DNA of 55,132 bases from a virus. Lineage: Duplodnaviria; Caudoviricetes. The notes below the pieces were generated by a model. The model saw only the letters and a list, made by a program, of their open reading frames with translations, searched no databases and had not been told where the DNA came from. The DNA is taken from IMG/VR virus record IMGVR_UViG_3300043427_002441, positions 1 to 55,132 of that record; one strand, given 5' to 3'. This document shows, piece after piece, positions 6,317 to 41,829 of the stretch; position 1 is the stretch's first letter, and every line of letters starts with the position of its first letter. Position numbers and translations under genes: made by a program.

Positions 6317-8620
6317 TTATACAATTCCAACTCCATGAAGAATGAAAGTGTTTGATGCTACACATAATAAGAATCCCATACCATAATCTGGCAGTTGATG
6401 TGGGGCAGTAGAGGTGCTTCCAGCAAGTCTTACAGTAGCACCAACAGCATCATCTACATCACAAGTTCCAGTTGTAGAATTGACAAGGATAATAAAATCT
6501 CCAACTGAAAAAACACCAGAAGGAACAATAATTCCATTTGTAGTGTTGGTAATATAAACGTGTTTTCCAACATCAGAAGCCTGGAGAGTGTATGCTGTTG
6601 CTGATGTGCTTTGTGAGTTTTGTGGATAATCTCTAACGTTTCCAATTGAATCGTTAATGGTAGTTGCGGTCAGAATTCCACTGTTTCCACCATTAATCTG
6701 AACCCCACTACCTAAAAGTAGATAACCTCCTGCTGCTCCAGCTTCAGTAATGCCACGATACCCTACAGAAGTAATAATTCCAGTTGAACGAGTATTACCA
6801 TCGATTATAAGAGATGCGGCATTACTTAATGATCCATCAACTGGATCAGGAGGTGGTTTTCCAACATATAAGCTAGCAGAATCTCTTTCTGCAAGTGTTC
6901 CAGTATTACGGTCAGCTGCGCTTGTTGTTCCAATTCCGATTGAACCAAATAATGCACTAGCACCCAAAGCTTCTACAGTAATGTCTTCTCTGGGGAAACT
7001 TGCTGTTGAAATACCAATTCTTCCATTACTAATTATAACTGAAGATTGATCAGTTCCTACTTGAAATTCTGCAACGGGAGCAGCAGTTCCTACTCCAATA
7101 GAACTTGCAACATATGCAGTTGTTGCAACTGATATTATATTAAAAGTAGAAATTCCAGAGGTAATATTGATTTTAGTGTTTGCACCAAGAGATAGGTTGG
7201 CTTCACCATTAACTGTCAAATTATTAGCAATTGTAGCACTATTATTAACAGTTAAACTATTTGATACCGTTGCATCATTTGTGAAAAGGGTTTGTCCAAC
7301 ATATAAATCTTGAGTTACTGAAGCAATACCAGAAACTTTAAGTTTTTCTATACCCGCAAATTCTGTTGTTCCAAGTCCAAGTCTTCCTTGATAAGTTAAC
7401 GTCATTAATGGACTTGATGACAAATTCTTTCCATAAATCCAATTAAATGATCCAGTGTTAATTCCACTTGCAGTTGCAGTTAAACTTCCAGCATGTAAGT
7501 AAGAATTTACGCTACCTAAATCATAATTAATAATATCTAAAGATGCTCGATTACTATATTGATATGCGGCATTTGCATTACCGAATAATACTCCCGCAAC
7601 ATTTTGATTTTTACTAACACTTCTTCCTAAGAAAATTTGAGATTCAAGAGGACTAGTAATCTGCAATTCAGAGTTATCACTATCCTTAGAAATGTGTATA
7701 TCAGATGCTGGATTAGAGGTATTGATTCCAAGTGTTCCTGTTATAGATGCTATTCCAGTAATTTGAGTATCTCTCAATGAAGAAATTCCAGCCACCAATC
7801 TACCAGAAATTGTCGCAATTCCCGATATACTTACATTTCCAGATACATCTAATGCATTGGAAACTGTAGAAATACCAAATATTGAAGTATTTGCACTAAT
7901 GCTTGAAATAGAAACTCTAGCATTGGAAGTTAAATCTCTTGCAGTACTTGCAATTCCAACAAGTGAACCTTCAACATTTCCAATAAGTTTATTATTTACA
8001 ATAATATTATTAACCTGAAGAGGATCAGGAATTTGAGGATTTGTAAGTTGAGGAACTACGCTTACTGGAAGAACTCCTTCAGTCACATTTGTAGCATCAA
8101 TTGAAGTAAGTCCTATACCACTTCCATAAAATATGAAAGCACTTACAATACCAAGACTGTAAACATTTCCGTTTGAATTAATACCAATACCTGGCAATCC
8201 TAGTCTAGGATCTGCACCAACTTGGAAAGACCAAAGAGGAGAATTTGTAGCAACACCAACATTACCAGCAGCATATATGCTAGTGAATCCTAAGCCAACA
8301 TCAACATCAACCCATTGTGATGTTGGTAAATTGGAAAGTGTGCCACCGTCACCATAAAATGCGGTTGCTGTTACAACACCAGAGGAACCTTGAATCTGAA
8401 CATTATTTCCAGATCTAATTTCATTAAAGGTTCCAATTCCACTAAGTTGTTGATTATTTGCAATTAAAAGATTATTAAATTTTACATTCCCATCTGTGAC
8501 TTCAAATCTTTCGGAAGGTAAGGAAGTTCCAATACCAACTAAACTTCCACGTACAATAAATTTATCTACATCTACCTGAACACCATTCCTAAAGTTAAAT
8601 GATTTATTGAAATTAGTCAT
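6317..8620 (-). CDS. tail-fibre-like virion structural protein
   Basis: repeated VGIGT/LGIxT beta-strand motifs; late promoter CTAAATA at 8647-8641. Confidence 0.75.
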   Translation of the reverse strand: MTNFNKSFNFRNGVQVDVDKFIVRGSLVGIGTSLPSERFEVTDGNVKFNNLLIANNQQLSGIGTFNEIRSGNNVQIQGSSGVVTATAFYGDGGTLSNLPTSQWVDVDVGLGFTSIYAAGNVGVATNSPLWSFQVGADPRLGLPGIGINSNGNVYSLGIVSAFIFYGSGIGLTSIDATNVTEGVLPVSVVPQLTNPQIPDPLQVNNIIVNNKLIGNVEGSLVGIASTARDLTSNARVSISSISANTSIFGISTVSNALDVSGNVSISGIATISGRLVAGISSLRDTQITGIASITGTLGINTSNPASDIHISKDSDNSELQITSPLESQIFLGRSVSKNQNVAGVLFGNANAAYQYSNRASLDIINYDLGSVNSYLHAGSLTATASGINTGSFNWIYGKNLSSSPLMTLTYQGRLGLGTTEFAGIEKLKVSGIASVTQDLYVGQTLFTNDATVSNSLTVNNSATIANNLTVNGEANLSLGANTKINITSGISTFNIISVATTAYVASSIGVGTAAPVAEFQVGTDQSSVIISNGRIGISTASFPREDITVEALGASALFGSIGIGTTSAADRNTGTLAERDSASLYVGKPPPDPVDGSLSNAASLIIDGNTRSTGIITSVGYRGITEAGAAGGYLLLGSGVQINGGNSGILTATTINDSIGNVRDYPQNSQSTSATAYTLQASDVGKHVYITNTTNGIIVPSGVFSVGDFIILVNSTTGTCDVDDAVGATVRLAGSTSTAPHQLPDYGMGFLLCVASNTFILHGVGIV

Positions 8621-15835: not shown

Positions 15836-15836
15836 G

Positions 15837-15910
15837 TGCAGGTTGTGGGGATCGAACCCACCTTAGCCGAATTATGAGTTCGGTGCTTTCAACCAGAGAG
15901 CTAAACCTGC
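15837..15910 (-). tRNA. tRNA with CAU anticodon (elongator Met or Ile2)
   Basis: GCAGGTT/AACCTGC acceptor, CCGAA-CTCATAA-TTCGG anticodon arm, GTTCGAT T-loop; G1-C72 pair argues against initiator. Confidence 0.9.
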
Positions 15911-16332
15911 TCGTTTAGGAACTCTTCCCAACTACTTCCATAGTGTAGCATATGGTGGCAGTTATGGCAAAGAAGATCGCATTTGTCAACCTCTTCTTTG
16001 ATAAGTTCCCATTTTCTATTTGCAAAACTTCTCCCATCAAGATTAAACTCTTTTTGAGATGGATCTCTATGATGAAAGCATAGAGTTGCTGGTCTTTTTT
16101 CACCACAAGTTTGACACTTACCACCTTTATATTGAAGGGCTTCCCATTTATTGGAATAACCTCTTGCTTTTTGTTCTGTGTAAGTATCCCTGTTAATCAC
16201 AACAGGATCATTTTTATAACGCCATTTTTGCCTACACGCATTACTACACCATTTTTTTAATCGCCCTTTTGTTATCCTTTCATTAAGGATATCACAACCG
16301 CAACCTTGACAAGTAGTAATAGTAGTAAGCAT
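15901..16332 (-). mobile_element. free-standing HNH homing endonuclease
   Basis: N-terminal CxxC...CSxxCR zinc finger; CQTC...FHH.DP...C.LLCHNCH HNH core; inserted in the tRNA cluster. Confidence 0.85.
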
Positions 16333-16360
16333 TATGGTGTTATGAACGTATACATACACC

Positions 16361-16368
16361 TATTTATA
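16361..16368 (-). promoter_or_regulatory. T4-type late promoter for the HNH gene
   Basis: exact TATAAATA. Confidence 0.75.
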
Positions 16369-16380
16369 ATAAATGTATGT

Positions 16381-16532
16381 TGGAGGAGAGATCCATACGA
16401 TGAAACAGAGTCGCAATACAAGTCATAGGTCTGTTTCGCACCGACTTGCAGCTGGGGTTTTTCACTCTCCCTTTTTCAAGTAGGTTTTCTGTTGCTTACC
16501 CTCTAAAACCCACTACAAAATGGATAAGCAAA
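16381..16532 (-). ncRNA. putative structured ncRNA (two pseudoknots, acceptor-like stem plus CCA)
   Basis: ORF-free spacer with several complementary segments identified by eye; see findings. Confidence 0.6.
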
Positions 16533-41699: not shown

Positions 41700-41730
41700 T
41701 AGGTTTTCTCCTTAGTTTTTTAGGTTAAAG

Positions 41731-41829
41731 AGCGTTCCTTCAGTCGGCTTTTGCGTTCGCTATTTGCGAATAGCGAATGAACGATCCGTTCCGAGTCGGC
41801 TTACTTCCGTCCCATATGGGATGAACGTT
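41731..41829 (-). ncRNA. tandem glutamine riboswitch (glnA RNA motif)
   Basis: two units: CGTTCA-hairpin-CGGAAGTAAGCCGACTCGGAACG and CGTTCA-hairpin-CGCAAAAGCCGACTGAAGGAACG, matching my recollection of the glnA motif. Confidence 0.85.

Follow-up and report, generated by a model that had tools for sequence, protein, structure and literature searches.

What lies in the gap of about 150 nt behind the tRNA-Ile gene of this viral tRNA array? The window, by which we mean the whole stretch of 55,132 nucleotides analyzed here, is a 55-kb piece of an uncultured virus, and its DNA relatives are Synechococcus T4-like phages. The original prediction, made from the letters alone, placed an unannotated structured RNA in this spacer, with two pseudoknots and a tRNA-like acceptor stem ending in CCA. 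Our comparison of homologues indicates that the spacer is a real, conserved, structured noncoding RNA riding in cyanophage tRNA arrays. It also shows a gene-like module in the slot of a tRNA gene, built of two separable domains whose predicted helices are kept by compensating changes. We refer to this module as the element, and its parts and neighbors are listed in Table 1.

Table 1. Positions of the predicted RNA element, its parts, and its neighbors, with the abiF motifs of related loci (double-changed, pairs that change on both sides among homologues)
Feature	Position	Strand	Description	Double-changed pairs
Sigma-70-type promoter match	17053-17025	minus	12/12; upstream of DUF7294 ORF, Phd-like ORF, tRNA-Ile, and element	
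DUF7294 ORF		minus	between promoter match (17053-17025) and Phd-like ORF	
Phd-like ORF	16793-16620	minus	22.9 bits against a cut-off of 29.8	
tRNA-Ile(TAT)	16605-16532	minus	ARAGORN; Rfam tRNA, 65.1 bits; 3' end adjoins element	
Structured RNA element	16384-16531	minus	148 nt, or 151 nt with CCA; domain 1, A-rich linker, domain 2	
Domain 1	16472-16531	minus	about 60 nt; H1, PK1, and linker	
H1	16531-16522 with 16501-16492	minus	10 bp; pair 4-37, C-G to T-A; pair 8-33, T-G, C-G, T-A	1/10
PK1	16513-16505 (loop strand) with 16488-16480	minus	9 bp; GTGGGTTTT/AAAACCTAC in main family, where 8 pairs are invariant and the ninth is mostly unpaired	0/9
Linker	16479-16472	minus	TTGAAAAA; 3' part of domain 1	
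Domain 2	16384-16471	minus	H2, H3, and PK2	
H2	16471-16465 with 16390-16384	minus	closing stem, 7 bp, then CCA at 16383-16381; first pair covaries	2/7
H3	16452-16440 with 16430-16413	minus	long hairpin, TGCAAGTC/GACTTGTA plus GGT/ACC; TAT bulge	4/10 + 3/3
PK2	16437-16431 (H3 loop) with 16408-16402	minus	GAAACAG with CTGTTTC; 7 pairs	4/7
CCA after closing stem	16381-16383	minus	at junction with HNH cassette	
HNH cassette	15901-16380	minus	inserted homing-endonuclease cassette; inverted repeat around TATAAATA (16380-16352) plus 143-codon HNH-type ORF (16332-15901)	
tRNA-Met(CAT)	15836-15910	minus	ARAGORN	
Second promoter match	15835-15807	minus	between tRNA-Met(CAT) and tRNA-Leu(TAA)	
tRNA-Leu(TAA)		minus	ARAGORN; after second promoter match	
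abiF motif, locus L143	6643-6679	minus	52 bits (cut-off, 37 bits)	
abiF motif, locus L148	9966-10002		42.2 bits (cut-off, 37 bits)	
abiF motif, locus L152	1954-1990		41.2 bits (cut-off, 37 bits)	

ARAGORN put the 3' end of tRNA-Ile(TAT) directly against the start of the spacer, as had been predicted. In a minus-strand scan from the upstream promoter match to the element, there was no terminator-like site and a single weak promoter-like match (9/12, positions 16705-16678). The spacer had also been described as free of open reading frames. This holds in part: ORFs of 33 to 40 codons do overlap it, but none is conserved across copies. Among the copies, which are 146 to 151 nt long, no coding frame stays open in every one, and the lengths of the indels are not multiples of three.

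A script check found all of the named helices at their predicted minus-strand coordinates, fully complementary when G-T wobbles are counted. In both domains, the loop of a hairpin pairs with the strand immediately 3' of the same hairpin. In domain 2, 11 nt of single strand separate PK2 from the terminal stem. Both knots have a long stem (10 and 13 bp) and a short connecting loop (3 to 4 and 4 to 8 nt), and they look sterically tight for the classical H type, an estimate made from these lengths. Two other candidate pairings were discarded. An ATC/GAT hairpin near the 3' end is contradicted by a C opposite an A in 9 of 23 aligned sequences, and a pairing of the CCCC tract was without support. 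An 8-mer, CTGCTTAT, is common to the 5' end of the element and the anticodon arm of tRNA-Ile in most homologues (the window has TTGCTTAT), which we judge to be compatible with chance.

The minimum free energy of the nested fold was no better than that of shuffled sequences (157 nt, z = -0.51; domain 2, z = -1.56). A single sequence therefore proves nothing here, and the argument has to come from relatives. When viral and metagenome contigs were scanned with exact patterns, 26 full-length loci were returned, including the window (23 distinct sequences, 146 to 151 nt). The scans also gave a copy truncated by the end of its contig, three loci in which domain 1 stands by itself, and four with another second domain. 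The patterns were derived from the element itself, so this harvest is skewed to close relatives. A covariance model, R1, scored the element of the window at 183.4 bits (E = 1e-32). In a blastn search of the element against 50,697 GenBank phage records, there were chance-level matches only, one of which (phage S-CREM1, E = 0.6) was later confirmed by R1. Genomes of 185,579 prokaryote species gave nothing in a first pattern scan and 10 places in a second, none of them confirmed by the model. On these scans, then, the element does not closely copy any host RNA.

Among the 23 distinct homologues, 95.3% of the cells pair, and 14 of the 46 pairs change on both sides (Table 1). When the partners were slid by 1 to 3 columns, 0 to 2 double-changed pairs remained, and none of 500 shuffles reached the observed value. 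Covariation, which the original prediction had proposed as a test of the RNA, is thus present against both controls. Variable columns number 10 of 60 in domain 1 but 50 of 92 in domain 2, a contrast that is partly a product of the pattern-based collection. RNAalifold recovered H1, H2, and H3 independently and proposed a nested helix (columns 68 to 72 with 131 to 135) instead of PK2. Two pairs of this rival helix are broken, in two sequences each, whereas PK2 is compensated in those four sequences. G-T pairs occur in four helices. These would be mismatches on the opposite strand, which argues for an RNA on the strand of the tRNAs.

Covariation supports PK2 as an H-type pseudoknot, and the support for PK1 comes from its rebuilding in a divergent subfamily of two members. 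One is in the cultured Synechococcus phage S-CREM1 (OP535465.1, 44181-44325, 145 nt), where R1 scored 48.6 bits (E = 2.8e-9). It lies between tRNA-Asp and tRNA-Glu and is the one significant R1 copy in the whole genome. A blastn search with this copy as the query gave the self-match only. The other member, L179, is from an uncultured phage and scored 46.4 bits. By script check, all six helices form in both members from different sequences, with H1 entirely different, PK1 as CCAGTTA/TAACTGG, and PK2 as GGAGTAG/CTACTTC. For PK1, this is wholly a structural match across subfamilies and not a formal alignment count, because MAFFT misaligned domain 1. On this comparison, the S-CREM1 subfamily settles the predicted PK1.

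The upstream neighbor of the 26 full-length copies is a tRNA-Ile-type 3' end in 17 loci (10 by ARAGORN, at 0 to 1 nt, and 7 read from the printed flank), a hairpin in 5, a promoter module in 3, and a shortened module in 1. Downstream are tRNA-Met at 3 to 4 nt (18 loci), tRNA-Gly at 4 nt (3 loci), the HNH cassette (4 loci), or a promoter module (1 locus). In all, 21 of the 26 copies stop 3 to 4 nt short of the next tRNA. Relatives without the HNH cassette have tRNA-Met 3 to 4 nt 3' of the element; other phages have a gap of 1 to 4 nt between tRNA-Ile and tRNA-Met and no spacer. Where a promoter module precedes the element, it takes up exactly 35 nt after the preceding tRNA (8/8 loci, including the cut copy and the four with another second domain). 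Modules of this length have the form TTGACAAT...TATAAT/TATGAT...TTGTCTT, with an inverted repeat running across the -35 box and the nucleotides that come after the -10 box. They stand between a tRNA and the next RNA unit in L132, L134, L151, L128, L153, L156, L159, and L160, and at 15835-15807 in the window.

The two domains separate. Domain 1 stands alone in L127, L129, and L131, where its TTGAAAA tail runs directly into tRNA-Leu. Therefore, domain 2 of the full element occupies the position of a tRNA. In L128, L153, L159, and L160, a different domain 2 comes after domain 1. That second domain is unrelated and about 55 nt long, with an inner hairpin as well as an AGAAAAG/CTTTTCT closing stem, and a gap of 4 nt separates it from tRNA-Gly.

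In the window, the HNH cassette is 79% identical in DNA to a region of S-SRM01 annotated as "HNH endonuclease," and Pfam gave no match to its 143-codon HNH-type ORF. Its inverted repeat surrounds TATAAATA, which we take to be the T4 late-promoter consensus. The end of the ORF overlaps tRNA-Met by 10 nt (15901-15910), as it does in S-SRM01. In most of 39 HNH-related loci the cassette comes directly after tRNA-Ile, and none of the 39 carries the element, including one with a 97% identical protein. This rules out the element as part of the HNH cassette, and the spacer therefore lies outside it. Among 80 loci linked to the Phd-like protein, the element was in one, between tRNA-Ile and tRNA-Met and without HNH. 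The element thus rides with or without the cassette, and it does so whichever of two tRNA-Ile forms precedes it. Besides the ordinary tRNA-Ile(TAT) of 72 to 75 nt, or in place of it, many related phages carry a form of 88 to 92 nt in which the variable arm is long and the D arm is odd (L001, 1410-1499; also L004, L006, L008, L124, L127, and others), which ARAGORN calls and Rfam scores at 28.8 bits against a cut-off of 29.

The one hint of expression is a 254-nt freshwater metatranscriptome contig, with 17 differences, that runs from the last part of the Phd-like ORF through tRNA-Ile and covers most of the element; it may be precursor RNA or carried-over DNA, and such contigs reveal neither ends nor strand. 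Four sequencing runs gave one other contig over the element, from a run of unrecorded type, and the RNA libraries with matches each shared a small part of its sequence words.

The arrays hold other unusual units. In L143, at about 6960-7320 (minus strand), an apparent tRNA-Leu(TAA), its exons read by eye, is split by an insert of about 300 nt that weakly matches the group I intron model (20.4 bits, E = 0.021, under the cut-off of 50). At about 7560-7640 on the same strand, between a promoter module and the element, is an 85-nt unit in which we see by eye a 7-bp terminal stem and an anticodon-like stem-loop, with no T arm; ARAGORN did not call it. Further inter-tRNA spacers of 64 to 235 nt occur in L150, L151, and L152 (tRNA-Asn to tRNA-His/Leu), L132 (three), L013, and L179. 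Several have T-arm-like hairpins, and in many a stem with ACCA or CCA closes the spacer, a few bases short of the tRNA that comes next.

The original prediction named a tRNA-like acceptor stem with a terminal CCA. The terminal stem is conserved and covaries, but in this comparison the CCA did not prove to be a defining feature of the family. Of the 26 full-length loci in the window's family, 4 have CCA, and these are the ones with the HNH cassette downstream (the window, L149, L150, and L152); their common junction is CCAACATACA. The other 22 loci have CTT, ACTT, ACT, ATT, ATC, CCT, CCC, AATT, ATTT, ATAA, or ATCCCC at this place. Both copies of the S-CREM1 subfamily have ACCA after the terminal stem, one base before the next tRNA (tRNA-Glu in S-CREM1). 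A distinct "type B" spacer RNA of about 87 nt, which is R1 negative, takes the same Ile-Met position, preceding the HNH gene in L038/L040 and L033 and lying between tRNA-Ile and tRNA-Met in L060. It has a hairpin and then a larger domain with a terminal stem, and it ends in C-CCA with or without HNH. Among 64 distinct inter-tRNA gaps of these arrays, 22 have CCA within the last 10 nt, whereas the share for internal 10-nt windows is 9.5%, in a post hoc comparison of nonindependent gaps, several of them from one family. The three real tRNAs of the window have no encoded CCA, as the original prediction said. A tRNA-like 3' end is possible for some array RNAs.

We also compared the element with known RNA families. 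Rfam 15, with 4,227 families that include manA, wcaG, the glutamine riboswitch, abiF, and ribozyme and riboswitch classes, gave no match overlapping 16381-16531 at E values up to 10 in the cmscan search that had been suggested with the prediction. At gathering thresholds, the whole window yielded three tRNAs and one glutamine riboswitch elsewhere, and nothing more. This aptamer (41729-41785, minus strand) scored 35.4 bits, barely at the Rfam threshold of 35. ARAGORN called nothing in the element, the Rfam tRNA matches are confined to the three flanking tRNAs, and cmscan gave no tmRNA family at E values up to 10, in agreement with the claim that the element is neither a tRNA nor a tmRNA. The central claim, an unannotated structured noncoding RNA with two pseudoknotted domains, is likewise borne out, backed by covariation and without an Rfam family. 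Tandem repeats like those of type III antitoxins (ToxI-like) were not found, with one significant R1 copy per locus; the neighbors are tRNAs, and the neighboring proteins were surveyed unsystematically. The element is not among the published cyanophage noncoding RNAs (CfrI, PhotoRC-II, wcaG, manA, the glutamine riboswitch, and abiF) as the available portions of those reports describe them, and literature searches for tRNA-array RNAs returned no description of it. A 2023 survey reports 8,495 unnamed candidate structured RNAs from IMG/VR 3 (PMC10690425). The element appears to be an uncatalogued RNA family, one that may stand unnamed among those candidates.

The reading that we favor, with about half of our confidence behind it, is a small stable RNA that is cut from tRNA precursors by host tRNA-processing enzymes, comparable to T4 rnaC and rnaD. 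We infer both the processing and the function. Because its boundaries are gene-like, the element would be cotranscribed with the tRNAs from early sigma-70-type promoters and released as the tRNAs on either side mature. Its 5' end would be freed when host enzymes trim the 3' end of the upstream tRNA, and its 3' end by the RNase P cut at the downstream tRNA. RNase P cannot set the 3' end in L143 and the four HNH-bearing loci, because there is no tRNA closely downstream. The product would accumulate as one stable RNA of about 150 nt or, if RNase P also cuts before domain 2, as two of about 60 and 90 nt. More tentatively, it might bind a protein of the host or the phage and so act in trans, plausibly in counter-defense. 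This idea arises because these arrays also place the abiF antitoxin RNA motif in a slot of this type. In T-even phages, tRNA loci that include a homing endonuclease are reported to act as anti-defense loci (PMC13096335). A counter-defense role is possible for the element, argued from its neighborhood (the abiF motif and the Phd-like gene) and from those T-even loci.

It is unlikely, in our estimate, that the element is instead a cis-acting spacer, whose fold would aid the adjacent tRNAs and then be degraded. Such a spacer could prevent misfolding of the pre-tRNA, present sites for RNase P, Z, or E, or shield the downstream precursor from a 5' exonuclease. The spacing would suit it, since 21 of 26 copies stop 3 to 4 nt short of a tRNA, 17 of 26 start where a tRNA ends, and domain 1 alone is the entire inter-tRNA spacer in three loci. 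However, other phages link tRNA-Ile and tRNA-Met by 1 to 4 nt and do without a spacer, few loci have the element (1 of 80 linked to Phd and 0 of 39 linked to HNH), and L143 and the four HNH-bearing loci have no tRNA closely downstream. The loops and linker are also conserved more tightly than an insulator needs. Mimicry of a tRNA acceptor end, the idea in the original prediction, strikes us as distinctly improbable. Domain 2 would then be a substrate or decoy for tRNA 3'-end enzymes, presenting a 7-bp terminal stem that starts with G, a discriminator base, and a CCA either encoded or added after trimming. It does sit in a tRNA slot, the first pair of its 7-bp stem covaries, and an A directly follows the stem in 8 of 12 junction types (read from the flanks). 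An encoded (N)CCA after the terminal stem is found in three lineages (the window type with HNH, the S-CREM1 type, and the type B spacer), and the nonindependent counts of CCA near gap ends point the same way. Against these stand the post hoc nature of that statistic, the 22 of 26 window-family loci without CCA, and the absence of a T arm, T loop, and anticodon arm by both ARAGORN and Rfam. The 11-nt single strand between PK2 and the terminal stem is also unlike the stacked acceptor and T stems of a tRNA.

With no match to any of the 4,227 Rfam families at E values up to 10, it is very unlikely that the element controls the tRNA transcript as a ligand-sensing riboswitch or cuts it as a self-cleaving ribozyme. 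Pseudoknotted folds with conserved unpaired nucleotides are in keeping with one, as is the position of some copies directly behind a promoter module, but downstream there is neither a terminator nor a start-codon platform, and the neighbors are tRNAs, a promoter, and an independently promoted gene. We find it scarcely credible that the fold is due to chance or that the signal is at the DNA level, such as a protein-binding site or a homing-endonuclease target. The folding energy is unremarkable and domain 1 is nearly invariant in the main family, as such a view would have it. However, it would have to accommodate 14 compensated pairs against 0 to 2 in the slid controls, wobble pairs that are strand specific, a divergent subfamily that rebuilds every helix, and an element that is independent of the HNH cassette.

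A wider speculation, and a long shot, is that the arrays launch a set of host-processed decoy RNAs, the element among them. Domain 2 and the stem-(N)CCA spacers would mimic acceptor ends and soak up defense enzymes, namely, host defenses that attack or modify tRNA 3' ends, and domain 1 would bind another partner. In a bolder variant, suggested because the geometry of both knots is tight, the loop-to-tail pairings may be intermolecular and form multimers like those of GOLLD and ROOL. The element has a practical advantage. One copy is in a cultured pair, phage S-CREM1 on Synechococcus sp. CB0101, and processing, partners, and role are therefore directly testable.

Phage tRNA clusters are increasingly viewed as anti-defense islands. 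To the RNAs of such clusters, the element adds a well-supported RNA family with two pseudoknots and a modular build. The original prediction had likened it to the RNAs of the T4 tRNA cluster, and this analogy holds for placement, head to tail with tRNAs, but not for homology, as the unfiltered R1 model reached at most 5.7 bits on the T4 tRNA region. The T4 order is tRNA-Ile, segB, tRNA-Arg, rnaD, and rnaC, with rnaD starting 1 nt past tRNA-Arg, and a homing endonuclease gene (segB) thus comes after tRNA-Ile as in the window. Like the element, rnaD (species 2, 119 nt) and rnaC (species 1, 139 nt) are non-tRNA units of 100 to 150 nt that lie head to tail with tRNAs. However, rnaD ends in ACCA and rnaC has a T-arm-like GGTTCGAATCC hairpin, neither of which is conserved in the element, and the two pseudoknots are a feature of the element. 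We know of no function for rnaC and rnaD, which have been unexplained for decades.

Three other systems invite comparison. The plant-virus tRNA-like structure Tymo_tRNA-like (RF00233) resembles the element in its pseudoknots and terminal stem, and in the CCA that follows the stem in a few copies. In the element, however, the CCA is unconserved and the pseudoknot does not build the terminal stem. The weak Rfam match to this family (15.6 bits, E = 6.1) is on the real tRNA-Ile and not on the element. GOLLD and ROOL are phage-encoded pseudoknotted RNAs that are described as of unknown function and "often near tRNA islands" (PMC12286853). They are like the element in being elaborate pseudoknotted phage RNAs by tRNA arrays, but they are described as several-fold larger and as RNA-only cages, and the element has no Rfam match.

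The abiF RNA motif (RF03085) occupies the same type of slot in the same arrays, a few nucleotides upstream of a tRNA. It scored at or above the Rfam threshold in 3 of 12 element-bearing loci (Table 1), each time 4 to 7 nt before a tRNA, and it has been reported in S-CREM1 (PMC9964418). At 37 nt, and with the AbiF toxin as its known partner, the motif differs from the element, which is not a match to it. The abiF RNA is reported to neutralize this toxin through direct binding (10.1101/2025.04.15.648962). Its presence in a like slot gives a concrete hypothesis for the element, that tRNA processing may deliver counter-defense RNAs.
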